Source: Candidatus Saccharimonadota bacterium (lineage in GTDB: Bacteria > Bacteroidota > Bacteroidia > Cytophagales > Amoebophilaceae). From it: 32,000 bases of DNA. The stretch lies in NCBI RefSeq assembly GCF_003351905.1, contig NZ_CP022339.1, forward strand, positions 270,001 through 302,000, given 5' to 3'. Both the position numbers and the translations under genes were made by a program. Positions within the stretch are counted from its first letter, which is position 1, and each line of letters opens with the position of its first letter. Of the stretch, positions 9,392-25,516 are shown piece by piece. The notes beneath the pieces were generated by a model. The model worked only from the letters and a program-made list of their open reading frames with translations. It did no database searches and was not told the DNA's origin.

Positions 9392-10378
9392 ATGAAAAAA
9401 GTTGCAATTAATGGATTTGGTCGTATTGGTCGATTGGCCTTACGGAATCTTTTATCCTGTAGTGATCTACAGGTAGTAGCGCTGAATGACCTGGCCAACA
9501 GTGCTACTTTAGCCCATTTATTTAAATATGACTCTAACTACGGTCCTTTTAGGGGGCAAGTCACATGTGATGATACGAGTATAACCATAGATAACCAGCG
9601 CATCCATGTCTATGCCTCAGCGCATCCATCTGCATTGCCCTGGAAGACACTAGGTGTAGATATAGTCATAGAGGCTACAGGCCGTTTCTTAGACCAAGCA
9701 GGCGCCAGTAGCCATTTAACAGCAGGTGCCAAACAAGTAGTACTTTCTGCACCTGCTAAAGATCATACCATTCCCACTGTTGTACTGGGTATTAATGATG
9801 CGATTTTAAAAACCAAACCAGCGATTATATCTAATGCCTCTTGTACAACCAATTGTTTGGCACCCGTTGCTAAGGTATTAGACGACCATTTTGGTATAGC
9901 ACAAGGGGTCATCAATACCATCCATGCCTATACAGCTGACCAATCGTTGCAAGATGCACCACATAATGATTTAAGAAGAGCAAGAGCCGCTGCACTTTCT
10001 ATTATTCCTACTTCTACAGGCGCTGCCCAAGCTATAGGGCTGGTTATGCCCCATTTAGCTGGGAAACTAGATGGTATGGCCATGCGTGTGCCTGTTGCGA
10101 ACGGTTCAGTGGTTGACTTTACCGCTATCCTAAAGCAAGAGGCTACTCAAAAGAGCTTAAATGAAGCAATGTATCAAGCAGCCCAGGGTCCACTTAGGCA
10201 TATATTGGCCTATACAGAAGAACCGATTGTCTCTGTAGATGTAATAGGCACTACCTACTCCTCGATTGTGGATGGGAAACTCACCTATGTGGATGGTAAA
10301 TTGGCAAAAATCATCAGCTGGTATGATAATGAAGGAGGATATGCCCACCGGCTGGTAGATATCATACGGTTGCTCTAA
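9392..10378 (+). CDS. gap: Glyceraldehyde-3-phosphate dehydrogenase
   Basis: INGFGRIGR NAD-binding N-terminus, catalytic SNASCTTNCLAP, and the C-terminal WYDNE block. Confidence 0.96.
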   Translation: MKKVAINGFGRIGRLALRNLLSCSDLQVVALNDLANSATLAHLFKYDSNYGPFRGQVTCDDTSITIDNQRIHVYASAHPSALPWKTLGVDIVIEATGRFLDQAGASSHLTAGAKQVVLSAPAKDHTIPTVVLGINDAILKTKPAIISNASCTTNCLAPVAKVLDDHFGIAQGVINTIHAYTADQSLQDAPHNDLRRARAAALSIIPTSTGAAQAIGLVMPHLAGKLDGMAMRVPVANGSVVDFTAILKQEATQKSLNEAMYQAAQGPLRHILAYTEEPIVSVDVIGTTYSSIVDGKLTYVDGKLAKIISWYDNEGGYAHRLVDIIRLL

Positions 10379-10458
10379 AAAGATTAAACCTTAACTGCTA
10401 CATAGTATACAGTAACAAAAAAACTTTTACACAATCCTTTAGAAAGACCAAAAATTTA

Positions 10459-10717
10459 GTATGTGTTCAGTGCGATGGTTGTTTGCGTTAAAAGAACAAC
10501 GCCCCTGAAAAAAGTCGCGGTGTAGAAAATGGCATTTTACAGATGATTTGGAAAAACAGTTTCCTTTGAAGCCCCCGAAGGGGGCGCTTTCTGTTTTTCC
10601 ATCTGTAAGATGGCAGTTGCAGCGACTTTTTACCAAGGGCTTGATTTTTTGTCCCCTTTTTTATCAAGAAAAAAGGGGGAATAAAATACCTTATTAACCA
10701 GTGACGTGAACAAATAC
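10459..10717 (+). mobile_element. MITE-like palindromic element, copy A1 (reference orientation); non-autonomous
   Basis: The left end is GTATGTGTTCAGTGCGATGGTT. The reverse complement of the right end is GTATTTGTTCACGTCACTGGTT (16/22 identical by hand alignment). The identical octamer AAAATTTA lies immediately outside both ends (10451-10458 and 10718-10725). Internally there is a long imperfect hairpin at about 10501-10640 with its apex at 10577-10579, plus a small hairpin at 10653-10678. Related copies lie at 12373, 20638, 21562 and 27033. Confidence 0.7.
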
Positions 10718-10851
10718 AAAATTTAAGCCATACTCTTACTCCAATGGGTTCTGTCGCGTTTGTTTTAAAGAAATGCTTACTATTTCAGTAACTGTAGTTA
10801 AAAAGTAGTGACCATGTTCAAGATTTCTGTCAAATTCATACCTTATTTTAA

Positions 10852-10873
10852 GTATCTTTTCACGAAACTGGTT
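10852..10873 (-). repeat. Solo copy of the element terminal-repeat motif
   Basis: GTATCTTTTCACGAAACTGGTT matches GTATCTGTTCACATTACTGGTT at 27033-27054 at 18/22 positions by hand alignment. No adjacent hairpin module. Confidence 0.4.
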
Positions 10874-10909
10874 AATAAGCCATTTTTCTTTTAAAGATGG
10901 GTTCTTAAG

Positions 10910-12372: not shown

Positions 12373-12632
12373 GAGTCTCTCTTCTAGTCACTGATTTTTT
12401 GTATTAAAAACAAAAAACCCTCAAAAAAGTCGCGGTGTAGCAAGTGTCATCTAAGAGATGATTGGGAAAAACAGTTTCCTTTAAATCCCCAAAGGGGGCG
12501 CTTGCTGTTTTTCCATCTCTCAGATGACACCTGCAGCAACTTTTTACCGAGGGCTTGATTTTTTGCTTACTTTTTTATCAAGAAAAAAGTAAAAATAAAA
12601 TTGCTTTACTAACCAGTGGCGTACATAGACAC
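12373..12632 (+). mobile_element. MITE-like palindromic element, copy A2
   Basis: Same module order as A1. The long hairpin has its core at 12465-14 of this region (12465-12514). The small hairpin is TTACTTTTTT-ATCAAG-AAAAAAGTAA at 12567-12592. The right terminal motif is AACCAGTGGCGTACATAGACAC. The left terminal repeat is more degenerate, so the left boundary is approximate. No clean flanking duplication is visible. Confidence 0.6.
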
Positions 12633-17503: not shown

Positions 17504-17741
17504 TTATAGAGATGCTTTAAATGTAAACCCACACCAACCATACTACCCCCTATTGCGAATTTACCGCCTAATCGGATAGGATCAAAATAAGACCATCGAT
17601 TAGGCAGTTTGCGAAATGCTATCGGGCAATTGGTCCGTCGATCCAGTACCTCAATCCTCACCCAGGCCTTGTACGCTGTGGTCTTGCATACCTTTTTTCA
17701 CTCATCAACTTTTTTCGAAAAAAATCTAGGATAAGCCATAG

Positions 17742-18215
17742 TTACTTTAACAGCCCTTTGCGTTGCAAGACAGTTGTAAAAAATTTGATCTCATTATCTC
17801 CATGGAAGATTTTAAATGGAAGATAAAAAAACTGCACCTTAGATAACACCAATAGAAAATATCCTTTCCCTTTATAAGCCTTCCGAATTTCTGTCCATGA
17901 TATGGGCATGGCCTGTTTTGCATTGAGCTGCATGATCAACTGCTGGTTGTTAATTTCATATACGACACGCTCAAAAATAGGACGATTGGTATCTAATTGT
18001 GTAAGTCCATAGAGCTGAACCAGCCAAAAAATCAGATAACAGATAAAACCGATGATACCGACCAACACAAACCAGATCGTCTTGATAAAAAAGGTACTAC
18101 TCATCAAAAGCGCAAGCAGAGGAAAAATCCACCACTGCATGCGTAAAATATTTTGTATCCCTAATTTTACATAAAGACCATTCGACATTTTATATTTTTT
18201 TGTTTTGACAATCAT
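17742..18215 (-). CDS. Small two-TM membrane protein, possibly YcxB-like; function unknown
   Basis: 157-aa ORF with two adjacent hydrophobic helices (WWIFPLLALLMSSTFFI, IWFVLVGIIGFICYLIFWLV) and then a soluble tail. The assignment rests on architecture only. Confidence 0.5.
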   Translation of the reverse strand: MIVKTKKYKMSNGLYVKLGIQNILRMQWWIFPLLALLMSSTFFIKTIWFVLVGIIGFICYLIFWLVQLYGLTQLDTNRPIFERVVYEINNQQLIMQLNAKQAMPISWTEIRKAYKGKGYFLLVLSKVQFFYLPFKIFHGDNEIKFFTTVLQRKGLLK

Positions 18216-20548: not shown

Positions 20549-20637
20549 GTATAGGTGCCAACAAGGCCATCTCCTTATCTGTATCTGTTCAAAAAATGGC
20601 GTCAACTTAAGGATTTTTTATTGATTTTCAAATAAAA

Positions 20638-21082
20638 ATATCTATTCGCGCCATTGGTTAGCAATGAATTTTATCCCACTTATATTTTAATAAAAAAGTG
20701 GACAAAAAATCAAGCCCTCGGTAAAAAGTCGCTGAAAGTGCCATCCTACAGATGGAAAAACAGAAAGCGCCCCCTTTGGGGGCTTCAAAGCAAACTGTTT
20801 TTCCTAATCATCTGTAACATGCCACTTTCTAAACCGCAACTTTTTACAGGGGCGTTGTTCTTTTTAAGTGAATTGAATAGATATATTTGCTGTTATTTCG
20901 TCAAGTTAAGTCGATTATGTCCGCCGATAAAAAAACTTGGTGGCCATAGGCAACTACCTATACGCATTAGCCATTGCTATCGCTGTGTTAGCATAGATAT
21001 TCTTTAAGATAACGCTACTGGCTGAACACATACTTTTCTTGATAAAAAAAGTAAGCAAAAAACCAGTGACTGGAACAGACAC
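20638..21082 (-). mobile_element. Composite MITE-like element, copy A3 (inverted relative to A1), carrying a collapsed B module and internal terminal-repeat remnants
   Basis: The left end ATATCTATTCGCGCCATTGGTT and the reverse complement of the right end GTGTCTGTTCCAGTCACTGGTT both match the family terminal repeat. The long A hairpin spans about 20711-20860 with its core at 20754-20804. At 20917-20947 (ATGTCCGCCGATAAAAAAACTTGG/TGGCCAT) only the left arm of the B palindrome seen at 26718 is kept. An internal end-like CTGGCTGAACACATAC lies at 21017-21032, and a small hairpin at 21031-21053. Confidence 0.55.
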
Positions 21083-21843: not shown

Positions 21844-22281
21844 ATGATAATGATAATGATTAGACTAATAAAAATCAATCTTTTATTGATTTTGAGCTAC
21901 ACTACTTCTTCATGTAGTCATCTAACTGAACCCATTTTAGTAAATATAAAGCGGACATGGGGCATGAGGAAGCATACCCCCCCCCCCCAGGCCATTAACC
22001 ACTACAATCCTTTAAAAGCCATACGAGATACAGTGCATAAAATCATTCCCTCTGTTATCCCGAATTTAAGGCAAACCTATATCAGGCAGATAAATCAGAC
22101 GCAACCTAGAGAAGACAGGCTACTCCCTAGTAGCATCCATCCATCGCTAAAAGATATAAATCAGGAGCAACCTAGAGGAAACAGGCTACCCACTAGTAGC
22201 ATCCATCCATCACCAAGAGATGAAGCATCAATGGATCACCTAAAGTGGTTGATAGCGATCCATTCAGATGAAATCAAATAA
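21844..22281 (+). CDS. Hypothetical small lipoprotein-like protein with a Pro tract and a 22-aa tandem repeat; possibly the N-terminal remnant of the decayed ankyrin gene downstream
   Basis: 145-aa ORF. It has a hydrophobic N-terminus ending in a Cys (LLLILSYTTSSC). A C12 homopolymer at 21977-21988 encodes PPP. There are two 66-bp tandem units. No recognisable domain. Confidence 0.45.
   Translation: MIMIMIRLIKINLLLILSYTTSSCSHLTEPILVNIKRTWGMRKHTPPPQAINHYNPLKAIRDTVHKIIPSVIPNLRQTYIRQINQTQPREDRLLPSSIHPSLKDINQEQPRGNRLPTSSIHPSPRDEASMDHLKWLIAIHSDEIK
22090..22221 (+). repeat. Tandem direct repeat, 2 x 66 bp, in frame (22 aa each)
   Basis: Unit 1 (22090-22155) is ATAAATCAGACGCAACCTAGAGAAGACAGGCTACTCCCTAGTAGCATCCATCCATCGCTAAAAGAT. 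Unit 2 (22156-22221) is ATAAATCAGGAGCAACCTAGAGGAAACAGGCTACCCACTAGTAGCATCCATCCATCACCAAGAGAT. At protein level these read INQTQPREDRLLPSSIHPSLKD and INQEQPRGNRLPTSSIHPSPRD. Confidence 0.85.
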
Positions 22282-24124: not shown

Positions 24125-25516
24125 ATGCATACCGATAGCAAGATTATTTGGGATAAATGTCTTCTATATATTCAAGGTCAGATCAGTGAACAAACCTATA
24201 AGACCTGGTTTAGCCCTATTATGGCCAAAGACTTCAAAGATGGCATCTTAACCATTCAAGTTCCTAGTCAATTTTTTTATGAGTGGCTAGAAGAACACCA
24301 TTTGCCTTTGTTAAAGCAAGCAGTACTGCAAGAAATAGGTCCACATGGCAAGCTAGCCTATGCTGTTGTGATAGACAAAGGGAATAAAAAGCAGAAACCC
24401 TTGATGGTGAATTTACCTACCTACCCAGGGCCAGCACCAAAAGGCGTACCTGCAATACCACCTACCACTTTAGGGAATGAAATCTTTCAATTAAATCCTA
24501 ATTACCTTTTTGATAACCTCATAGAAGGCAGCTGCAACCAACTTGCTAAGTCTGCAGCACAAGCCGTTGCGCAACAACCAGGCGGTACGGCTTTTAATCC
24601 GCTGATGCTTTATGGAGGTGTAGGGTTAGGCAAAACCCATATTTCTCAAGCCATTGGCAATGCAGTTAAAACATTTTTCCCAGAGAAAAAAGTGGCTTAT
24701 GTTTCCTCAGAAAAGTTTACCACACAGTTTATAGAAGCTTTACGCAACAACTACGTGCAATCTTTTACAGGGCAATACCTAGCCGTCGATTTGCTGATCT
24801 TGGATGACATCCAGTTTCTATCTGGTAAAGAAAAAACACAAGAAATATTTTTTCATATCTTTAACCATCTGCATCAATTAAAAAAACAAATTATCATTAC
24901 CAGTGACTGCGCACCACGTGACTTAAAAGGGTTACAAGAACGGCTGCTTTCTAGGTTCAAATGGGGGTTAACGGCAGACTTGCAGTGCCCGGATTTTGAA
25001 ACCCGCGTAGCGATTATACATAGTAAAGTGGCAGCAGATGGCATCACGCTTTCATCAGATTTGATTGACTATATTGCCCAACACGTCGACACCAATATAC
25101 GAGAATTAGAGGGGGTACTTATTTCACTTATTGCGCATGCTTCGTTGACCAAACGAGACATGAATATAGAATTGGCGCAACAAGTTTTAAAGCATATTGT
25201 GGCGCAGCACCAACCTACGGAAGCTACTATTGACGTACTGCAACAACAAATAGTGGCGCACTATAATATTTCTTTGGATGATCTCAAGGGTAAATCACGT
25301 AAAAAAGAGATTGTAGTTGCACGCCAAATAGCCATGCACCTGACCAAAAAATATACCACACACTCTTTAAAATCAATAGGTAGCTACTTTGGCGGAAGAG
25401 ACCATACCACGGTGATACATGCTCTACAAGTCATAGATAACCTATTGAACAAAGACCCAGAATATGCCCAGTTGTATGCATCACTGGAAAATAAAATCAA
25501 ATCAACTATAAAATAA
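24125..25516 (+). CDS. dnaA: Chromosomal replication initiator protein DnaA
   Basis: 463 aa. The N-terminus is W..CL..I...IS...Y.TWF. AAA+ Walker A is GGVGLGKTHISQAIGN and Walker B is LILDDIQFL. The sensor region is IRELEGVL. The C-terminal DNA-binding domain has VVARQIAMHLTKK...GGRDHTTVIHA. Confidence 0.97.
   Translation: MHTDSKIIWDKCLLYIQGQISEQTYKTWFSPIMAKDFKDGILTIQVPSQFFYEWLEEHHLPLLKQAVLQEIGPHGKLAYAVVIDKGNKKQKPLMVNLPTYPGPAPKGVPAIPPTTLGNEIFQLNPNYLFDNLIEGSCNQLAKSAAQAVAQQPGGTAFNPLMLYGGVGLGKTHISQAIGNAVKTFFPEKKVAYVSSEKFTTQFIEALRNNYVQSFTGQYLAVDLLILDDIQFLSGKEKTQEIFFHIFNHLHQLKKQIIITSDCAPRDLKGLQERLLSRFKWGLTADLQCPDFETRVAIIHSKVAADGITLSSDLIDYIAQHVDTNIRELEGVLISLIAHASLTKRDMNIELAQQVLKHIVAQHQPTEATIDVLQQQIVAHYNISLDDLKGKSRKKEIVVARQIAMHLTKKYTTHSLKSIGSYFGGRDHTTVIHALQVIDNLLNKDPEYAQLYASLENKIKSTIK

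Follow-up and report, generated by a model that had tools for sequence, protein, structure and literature searches.

Bacterial MITEs (miniature inverted-repeat transposable elements), such as Correia/NEMIS of Neisseria, ERIC/IRU and YPAL of enterobacteria, and RUP of Streptococcus pneumoniae, are short, non-coding, multi-copy sequences with terminal inverted repeats (TIRs) and target site duplications (TSDs), which are mostly intergenic, occur in either orientation, are associated with rearrangements and can fold into a long stem-loop when transcribed. Correia and RUP elements duplicate TA. In this study, we analysed a 32-kb stretch of a Candidatus Cardinium genome (contig NZ_CP022339.1, positions 270,001–302,000; hereafter the window, from the first base of which positions are counted), in which an initial annotation had described a very long imperfect hairpin and had interpreted it as a structure that is used, either an RNA or a hairpin of single-stranded DNA (ssDNA) that a protein recognises. 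Our analysis indicates that this hairpin is probably the central foldback of a ~258-bp non-autonomous MITE of Candidatus Cardinium, here named family A. The element, of which the copy in question is designated A1, has all of the properties listed above and is of an ordinary kind, not a newly found RNA gene, resembling hairpin-forming bacterial MITEs such as Correia, ERIC and RUP. It differs from the four described groups in that it has no sequence relationship with them, in that its TSD is 8 bp long, in that its hairpin, instead of consisting simply of paired TIRs, is a distinct 140-nt foldback that lies off-centre and precedes another hairpin, and in that its interior is more conserved than its TIRs.

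Two other types of repeat are similar in some respects. Rickettsia palindromic elements (RPEs), which are known for in-frame insertion into protein-coding genes, are also palindromic repeats that proliferated in an obligate intracellular bacterium, but they are not known to have clear TIRs or a TSD, whereas family A copies are intergenic and have both. Repetitive extragenic palindromes (REPs, including REPINs; 20–40 nt), with their RAYT transposases, and integron attC sites (57–141 nt) resemble the family A foldback in being imperfect hairpins with conserved extrahelical bases and strand asymmetry, and these systems are thought to act as folded single strands. However, neither REP/RAYT systems, IS200/IS605 elements nor attC sites are known to possess TIRs or an 8-bp TSD, and membership of family A in a REP/REPIN–RAYT or IS200/IS605-type group was not supported, both features being present.

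Within the genus, MITECca01 and MITECca02 of Cardinium cOegibbosus, which are about 240 bp in length and derived from the insertion sequence (IS) ISCca4 of the IS982 family, were reported to be unique to that strain (Halter et al. 2022, PMC9769881). They are similar to family A in size and in their intergenic, high-copy, non-autonomous lifestyle, but MITECca01 has the TIRs of ISCca4, which are not those of family A, and family A is known from five Cardinium lineages or more. Identity of family A with MITECca01 was rejected, because the candidate MITECca01 copies in our collection of loci (L007 6243–6487 and L079 4266–4511) start with AACGTGAGTTCGGG and have no similarity to family A; they are AT-rich and without a long hairpin, with a minimum free energy (MFE) of −41 kcal/mol over 245 nt. 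In a later paper on cTPut (Candidatus Cardinium sp. TP, which lives in the mite Tyrophagus putrescentiae), the term 'MITE' denotes transposase fragments and not family A. MITECca01 and MITECca02 being the only Cardinium MITEs that we found in the literature, family A appears to be undescribed. It represents a second, more widely distributed MITE family of Cardinium that is abundant in the mite-associated clade, and it accounts for a set of highly stable hairpins between genes that might be misread as small RNA genes or terminators.

Structure and boundaries of element A1

The palindrome spans 140 nt (10501–10640), and its apex GAA (10577–10579) is flanked by C5 and G5, a geometry that agrees with the initial description. 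When the region 10480–10700 was folded as RNA, the + strand reached −83.5 kcal/mol (z = −6.83) and the − strand −74.2 kcal/mol (z = −6.48), and on neither strand was any of 200 shuffled sequences as stable. Folding of 10501–10640 as ssDNA with DNA parameters yielded −39.8 kcal/mol (z = −7.74).

The palindrome forms the interior of the 259-bp element A1, the components of which are arranged in the order left TIR, small hairpin, 140-nt foldback, second hairpin composed of interleaved inverted repeats, and right TIR. In the alignment of 50 copies, the family A termini have the consensus GTAT(C/G)TGTTCA...TGAACAGATAC, and the TIRs of ~22 bp coincide with the exact limits of homology. The TIRs are of the GTATCTGTTCA type, and the pattern of the termini is GTATsTGTTCA...ATGG/CCAGT...TGAACAGATAC. 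Copies are 253–261 bp long, and those of a long form about 303–315 bp. A1 is flanked by a perfect 8-bp TSD, AAAATTTA, and is one of the 7 copies, among 34 that could be scored, in which a perfect 8-bp TSD is preserved; the 8-mers differ from copy to copy, and two further scorable copies have an 8-bp TSD with two mismatches. Among the open reading frames (ORFs) of the window, none of ≥80 aa overlaps A1. No transposase is encoded in the 32 kb, which codes for housekeeping genes only. Family A is thus a short, non-coding element with ~22-bp TIRs, an 8-bp TSD and dozens of dispersed intergenic copies, as is characteristic of MITEs. A hexamer common to the TIRs and the hairpin arms (ACAGAT/ATCTGT) was judged to be compatible with chance.

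At 10640–10680, and at the equivalent site of every family A copy, the inverted repeats interleave (CTTGAT..TCCAC..ATCAAG..GTGGG), which gives a pseudoknot-like topology. The CTTGAT/ATCAAG stem is nearly invariant, and the second interleaved stem covaries strongly across copies and species (GTCCCC/GGGGG, GCTTAC/GTAAA, GCACAC/GTGTG and GTGCAC/GTGCA).

Distribution of family A in Cardinium

One genome per bacterial species was scanned with the core pattern AAAAACAGTTT-N20-40-CTGTTTTTCC. Because loci were gathered via this exact pattern, 21 core bases are conserved among them by ascertainment. Many of the loci come from cTPut and a few from the Cardinium symbionts of Oedothorax gibbosus, Nabis limbatus and Brevipalpus (cBcalN2), and the matches outside Cardinium were single and unrelated. 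A BLAST search with A1 yielded 50 full-length copies, and at least 46 full copies come from the window and the cTPut loci. At least 43 full copies are distributed over >20 cTPut contigs. The window, which is not from cTPut itself but has genes 90–93% identical to those of cTPut at the DNA level, contains three full copies and several fragments: A1, the previously noted copy A2, which was confirmed, and a third copy, A3, on the − strand. The symbionts of Oedothorax, Nabis and Brevipalpus carry diverged copies, as does plasmid CP101109. The family is present in at least five Cardinium lineages.

The plasmid (CP101109.1, 33.8 kb), which is from the Cardinium of Dermatophagoides farinae, carries an unannotated, diverged partial copy at 17614–17758 (L128 6001–6145; 71% identity over 146 nt), and plasmids of this kind are a possible route for the spread of family A between strains. 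No copies of family A, or of family B described below, were found in 26 kb of the Cardinium of Philonthus spinipes (L122, L123 and L127), although this symbiont is closer to the window genome (protein identity 82–91%) than the copy-carrying Oedothorax or Nabis symbionts. The distribution of the family is therefore patchy.

Copies of the long-form subfamily, to which A3 (right end 20582–20650) and many cTPut copies belong, are extended by 57 bp, and the added stretch contains a further, degenerate sequence resembling a TIR as well as the motif ATGGCGTCAACTTAAGGA just inside the true terminus. This extension may preserve more of the end of the parent element.

Compensatory changes and inherited complementarity

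To the 50 aligned copies, a consensus fold was mapped, and partner shuffling (500 shuffles) and slid registers served as controls. Over the whole element, 89.2% of the cells pair, as compared with 88.0% when partners were shuffled and about 50% in slid registers. Changes on both sides were found at 26 pairs versus 17.5 ± 2.7 in the shuffles, only one of which reached this number, and none of the shuffles reached the observed 98 pair types (85.5 in shuffles). In the long hairpin, 92.6% of the cells pair versus 91.6% with shuffled partners, double changes occupy 25 of 2662 cells (0.9%), and the 11 pairs with double changes compare with 7.0 ± 1.8 in shuffles (14 of 500 reach 11) and with 7–14 in the slid-register controls. 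The proposal that the hairpin is kept by compensatory changes thus holds only weakly: there is an excess over shuffles, but it is small, and the number of double-change pairs in the hairpin lies within the range of the slid controls. Furthermore, the family A consensus is a near-perfect Watson–Crick palindrome (54 of 54 pairs) that folds alike on both strands (−69.2 versus −68.2 kcal/mol), which indicates that the complementarity among copies is mostly inherited. We conclude that covariation in the long hairpin appears to be real but small, and that the pairing is for the most part inherited from a master copy that was palindromic.

The two examples from which the proposal had started fared differently. 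The change of a C:G pair in A1 to G:C in A2 (TACAGATG/CATCTGTA to AAGAGATG/CATCTCTC, columns 107/173) is present, and the neighbouring pair 105/175 also changed on both sides and was broken. The other example, TGGCAT/ATGGCA in A1 versus GTGTCAT/ATGACAC in A2, does not represent covariation, since the 50 copies show G.A (20), G.G (12), T:A (5) and G:C (3) at this position without association (Fisher p = 1.0); the position is instead a conserved mismatch, G.A or G.G being present in 32 of the 50 copies. Compensatory differences also separate lineages (G:C in Nabis versus T:A in cTPut; CAGCTG versus CAGATG in Oedothorax), and the copies from other species, which are 29–36% diverged, still fold at −73 to −90 kcal/mol.

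A palindrome of this kind could be functionless, having arisen by a fold-back (inverted duplication) at the origin of the MITE, with complementarity resulting solely from the youth of the copies, template switching within the palindrome and gene conversion among copies. Several features agree with this explanation. The distinct double changes in the hairpin (about 14 types that keep the pair and about 10 that break it) are near the 44% preservation expected by chance, and variant states are highly homoplastic on the copy tree, which suggests inter-copy conversion. Apex loops occur as mutual reverse complements (AAA in ~22 copies and TTT in ~10; CGCAG in three and CTGCG in one) that are spread over the subfamilies, as expected from template switching or inversion within the palindrome. 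Unrelated but fully self-complementary arms surround one core in families A and B, as snap-back copying predicts. Template switching, however, should erase the 4–5-nt bulge, the G.A/G.G mismatch and the asymmetric loop, all of which persist. The 2.6:1 excess of G:T cells described below is also greater than the general transition bias of 1.4:1, and the hairpin survives the divergence between species. Taken together, we regard a functionless palindrome as doubtful.

Conserved bulges and strand asymmetry

As had been pointed out for the copies in the window, bulges in the hairpin are asymmetric and conserved. The 5'-arm bulge before GAAAAACAG (ATTAG, ATTTG or ATGTG) has a fixed position, shared by nearly all copies as well as by family B and the other Cardinium species. 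The conserved mismatch and the asymmetric loop next to the apex have fixed positions, too. The loop sequence TTTCCTTT is kept in the copies of cTPut and the window and in some family B copies, and differs in other species. Copies from Oedothorax and Nabis have retained the arms but have no GC apex.

The two strands are not equivalent. In the long hairpin, 147 G:T cells are present versus 56 A:C cells on the + strand of A1 (2.6:1). The + strand folds better as RNA in 42 of the 50 family A copies (mean difference −7.2 kcal/mol), in all four copies from other species (−10 to −18 kcal/mol) and in 5 of 6 family B copies, although copies are not independent of one another. The comparison of G–U with A–C pairs per strand, which had been suggested for identifying the functional strand, thus reveals an excess on one strand, but part of it reflects a general bias, because on the top strand the transitions C>T and A>G together outnumber G>A and T>C about 1.4-fold, at unpaired sites as well. 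Private (singleton) transitions are unbiased (17 versus 18), and the wobble bias sits in variants common to several copies. This is a hint that selection acted on one single strand at source copies during propagation, not on copies in place. Support for the view that the hairpin is a structure that is used is confined to hints of a single-strand constraint at the level of the element, namely, the fixed bulges and mismatch, the persistence of the hairpin at 29–36% divergence and the strand bias, and it has to be set against the findings that the hairpin is the interior of a mobile element and that its complementarity is mostly inherited.

Family B and the core shared with family A

About ten copies of another family, family B, from the window, cTPut and Nabis, form hairpins of 170–190 nt, with MFEs of −58 to −119 kcal/mol over folded stretches of ~260–275 nt, the two least stable folds being those of degraded or truncated copies. 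An asymmetric core of ~75 nt, bulge included, of the form CAGnnG, bulge, GAAAAACAG, apex, CTGTTTTTCC, nnCTG, is common to families A and B and is carried by these two families only. The outer arms of the two families are unrelated to each other, each set being self-complementary, and the helix next to the core shows compensatory differences between them (CAGATG/CATCTG versus CAGCGG/CCGCTG). Among the 46 copies from cTPut and the window, variation amounts to 6.7% in the hairpin stems and 15.5% in the TIRs, a difference that is partly due to ascertainment, since the 21 core bases are fixed by the search pattern. What departs most from the ordinary in this element is the shared core, together with an interior that varies less than the TIRs.

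We considered two explanations that assign a function to the core. In the first, it is a strand-specific functional module, namely, a mobilization signal in the form of a folded single strand (DNA or RNA), or a seed from which new palindromic MITE families arise by snap-back copying. The points behind this explanation are the presence of the core in two families with unrelated arms, its greater conservation as compared with the TIRs and the G:T bias of one strand. Although we consider it unlikely, such a module would imply a hairpin-dependent mode of MITE propagation in an endosymbiont. In the second, the asymmetric core hairpin would be the substrate of an enzyme that mobilizes folded ssDNA, comparable to attC/IntI, REP/RAYT or the ends of IS200/IS605 elements and TnpA, and the TIRs would be secondary. 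Conserved positions of bulges and mismatches combined with variable sequences at these positions, the single ~75-nt core in two families, the lower variation of the interior than of the TIRs, and a strand asymmetry seen in both families and across species would all be in line with such a substrate. On the other hand, the TIRs and the 8-bp TSD point to a DDE transposase that acts on duplex ends, and in a search that was not exhaustive, no Y1/HUH, RAYT, IntI or integrase gene was seen among the window ORFs or the loci. We therefore give this second explanation little credence as well.

At three loci (L012 ~2290–2560, L076 ~3080–3330 and L086 ~5760–6020 on the − strand), the right part of a family B copy is joined to the right half of a family A copy near the shared core. 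These hairpin-less chimeras, which probably arose when A and B copies recombined, have canonical termini. They could be taken to speak against a folded-ssDNA substrate, but they have no TSD and are thus uninformative on mobility. The core that it shares with family B, the lower variability of its interior as compared with its TIRs and a wobble bias that resides in shared variants make family A a tractable case for distinguishing selection on MITE foldbacks during transposition from mere by-products.

Genomic placement and fate of the copies

Of 41 copies that could be scored relative to the flanking genes, 18 are located between convergent genes and 3 between divergent genes, and each tandem orientation accounts for 10. 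The low number between divergent genes suggests that promoter regions are avoided, and the equal numbers in tandem arrangements indicate that there is no strand preference.

This distribution bears on the possibility that the host uses the hairpin as RNA, in terminators, insulators between convergent genes or 3'-end stabilizers, so that selection on transcripts would keep the stems. The frequent location between convergent genes is consistent with such a use, and so are the G:T versus A:C intermediates at the switching pairs 80/193, 83/190 and 135/158 (11:2, 9:3 and 21:3, respectively). In addition, the apex GCCCCC-AAA-GGGGGC followed by GCTTTCTGTTTTT was among the top-listed terminator-like sites in a 19-kb scan; in the family A apex, as in an intrinsic (rho-independent) terminator, a 6-bp GC stem closed by a 3-nt loop leads into a T-rich tail, with an upstream A-tract as in bidirectional terminators. 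The differences from such terminators are that the stem has an adjoining T-tract in only one orientation, that other Cardinium species do not conserve the apex, and that 60 bp of outer stem would play no part in termination. The terminator pattern is present in the + orientation of the element in window and cTPut copies, and neither in the opposite orientation nor in Oedothorax and Nabis copies.

Several other findings also argue against a use as RNA. Tandem copies are equally frequent in both orientations despite the one-sided tail, and a transcript terminated at the apex would stop short of the 3' arm, so that no long stem could form in the same RNA. The arms persist in the Oedothorax and Nabis copies that lack the GC apex, the cTPut orthologue of A2 has lost half of the hairpin, no wobble bias is seen among private mutations, and the scarcity of copies in divergent intergenic regions would also be expected from selection against promoter disruption. 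Rfam gave no match in the window at gathering thresholds; a relaxed search of 10400–10780 produced chance-level matches only (E 0.07–0.95), far below gathering scores, and no tRNA or tmRNA is present. We consider it decidedly unlikely that the host maintains the hairpin as RNA.

The A2 site, located between an ankyrin gene and gatC, was the only one used for an orthologous comparison with cTPut. In cTPut, only the right half of the element is kept (L121 3532–3637), a 213-bp deletion having removed the left TIR, the 5' arm and the apex. Together with the internally deleted copy at 27033–27190 in the window, this indicates that neither loss of copies nor damage to them carries an apparent penalty. 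Given the unbiased orientation, the lost arm of A2, the internal deletion, the flips and differences of the apex and the lack of an Rfam match, a role that is maintained at single loci is not supported. A half-element beside the LPG-synthase gene in cTPut (L121 5094–5227) was considered as an orthologue of A1, but its flanking 8-mer, TTGATAAA, and its spacer differ, and orthology was not established.

Family A is also associated with rearrangements. The region 5315–10411 of the window, which contains the SHMT gene, an ankyrin gene, gap and others, is inverted relative to cTPut (compare L121 and L125), and both breakpoints (5165–5318 and 10379–10909) are in intergenic regions with element copies or fragments. 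Inverted apex loops, homoplasy, A/B chimeras and these inversion breakpoints are four signs of palindrome instability or inter-copy recombination. Situated at inversion breakpoints close to dnaA, family A probably contributes to the scrambled synteny and fragmented assemblies of these genomes.

Mobilization of family A

IS families that duplicate 8 bp include IS6, IS256, ISL3 and IS66, among others, which fits the 8-bp TSD of family A. As the most plausible course of events, we infer that family A is moved by a DDE-type transposase supplied in trans, and that the complementarity of its foldback is kept mainly by the descent of all copies from a nearly perfect palindromic master sequence. The few compensatory changes, the conserved bulges and the G:T bias of one strand are concentrated in variants common to several copies or lineages, not in private mutations, and any constraint would thus act on source copies while the element propagates. 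The most likely reason would be that one strand folds when it is single-stranded, for example, at the replication fork or during transposition, drawing the ends together. Template switching inside the palindrome could correct the arms and flip the loops at the DNA level. Inserted copies are unprotected, being subject to decay, to loss of arms by deletion and to recombination with family B at the core, and marking the breakpoints of rearrangements. Read-through by RNA polymerase would generate a very stable stem-loop with a terminator-like tip, as a by-product and not a demonstrated function.

Some observations weigh against the interpretation of the hairpin as the foldback of such a MITE. No autonomous element with family A TIRs was found in the about 430 kb examined. 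The TIR of ISCca2 (IS6 family), GGTTCTGTCGCG, matches that of family A at only 9 of 13 bases, and IS256-like ends, considered as those of a parent, do not match. The TIRs are more variable than the interior, which is unusual where a MITE relies on its ends alone, a clean TSD is kept in only 7 of the 34 scorable copies, and the conservation of 21 core bases stems from the search with the exact core pattern. The role of folding in transposition is itself inferred, and the strand bias could be due to selection at the RNA level instead.

Further searches for a parent element gave the following results. In tblastn searches with IS6, IS256 and IS5 transposases, nothing was detected in the window or among the cTPut loci, neither of which holds transposase remnants. 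From the spacing of 11-mers resembling the TIR, no consistent class of IS size emerged, and a plasmid search with the long terminal form returned AT-rich noise only. A likeness of the subterminal motif GGCGTCAACTTAAGG to IS231-type ends was considered but found no confirmation in the literature search, and was not used. In the Cardinium of Oedothorax gibbosus (L099, ~1–100 and 158–904), ISCca2 adjoins a family A copy, into which it was apparently inserted.

Positions of the elements and other features in the window

Positions of the elements and their components are listed in Table 1.

Table 1. Components of element A1 and other copies and fragments of families A and B in the 32-kb window
Feature	Position	Strand	Remarks
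Family A left-end fragment, short	5273–5304	−	At the other inversion breakpoint relative to cTPut; repeat D11 and synteny
Left TSD copy of A1, AAAATTTA	10451–10458		Identical to 10718–10725
Element A1, complete 259-bp MITE of family A	10459–10717	+	Termini GTATGTGTTCA...TGAACAAATAC; homology to >45 other copies ends there
Left TIR of A1, GTATGTGTTCAGTGCGATGGTT	10459–10480	+	Inverted match to 10696–10717; conserved termini in the alignment
Small subterminal hairpin, GCGTT-AAAAGAAC-AACGC	10485–10502	+	Consensus helix 4; 72.7% of cells paired
Long imperfect hairpin (5' arm 10501–10559, apex region 10560–10590, 3' arm 10591–10640)	10501–10640	+	54 consensus pairs; 92.6% of cells paired in 50 copies
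Conserved 5'-arm bulge (ATTT in A1; ATTA or ATGT elsewhere)	10546–10549	+	Position common to A copies, family B and other species
Core common to A and B: GGAAAAACAG, asymmetric loop, GC apex hairpin, CTGTTTTTCC	10550–10600	+	5 pattern matches in the window versus 0 expected
GC-rich apex stem-loop, GCCCCC-GAA-GGGGGC, then GCTTTCTGTTTTT	10571–10585	+	Terminator-like in + orientation only
Interleaved inverted repeats, CTTGAT..TCCCC..ATCAAG..GGGGG (second hairpin, helix 12)	10640–10680	+	95.4% of cells paired; 5 of 11 pairs changed on both sides
Right TIR of A1, AACCAGTGACGTGAACAAATAC	10696–10717	+	Inverted match to left TIR
Right TSD copy of A1, AAAATTTA	10718–10725		Identical to 10451–10458
Solo TIR-like remnant of another copy, beside the LPG-synthase gene	10842–10886	−	Inverted repeat I9 with 10683–10727
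Element A2, old diverged copy (17.6% from consensus), hairpin 12418–12553	12373–12632	+	Repeat search; alignment
Element A3, long form (A') with 57-bp right-end extension, hairpin 20714–20853	20582–20884	−	Repeat search; alignment
Family A left-end fragment (TIR through CCCCTGTAAAAAG)	26641–26693	−	Part of the nest at 26641–27440
Element B1 (family B), hairpin 26724–26894	26687–26960	+	MFE −98.5 kcal/mol over 271 nt
Family A copy that lost its 5' arm and apex through a deletion between a pair of CTGTAA direct repeats	27033–27190	−	Part of the nest at 26641–27440
Element B2 (family B), hairpin 27254–27424	27217–27440	+	Repeat search

The segment 26641–27440, which lies between two convergent genes, is a dense nest composed of a family A left-end fragment, B1, an internally deleted family A copy and B2. 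The dnaA gene is located at 24125–25516, and its protein product is 97% identical to DnaA of cTPut. No signature of a replication origin was seen in the window, across which the cumulative GC skew falls steadily and without a turning point. The gene beside dnaA has a different neighbour in cTPut, and a 66-bp tandem duplication (22090–22221) is present about 1.9 kb upstream of dnaA.

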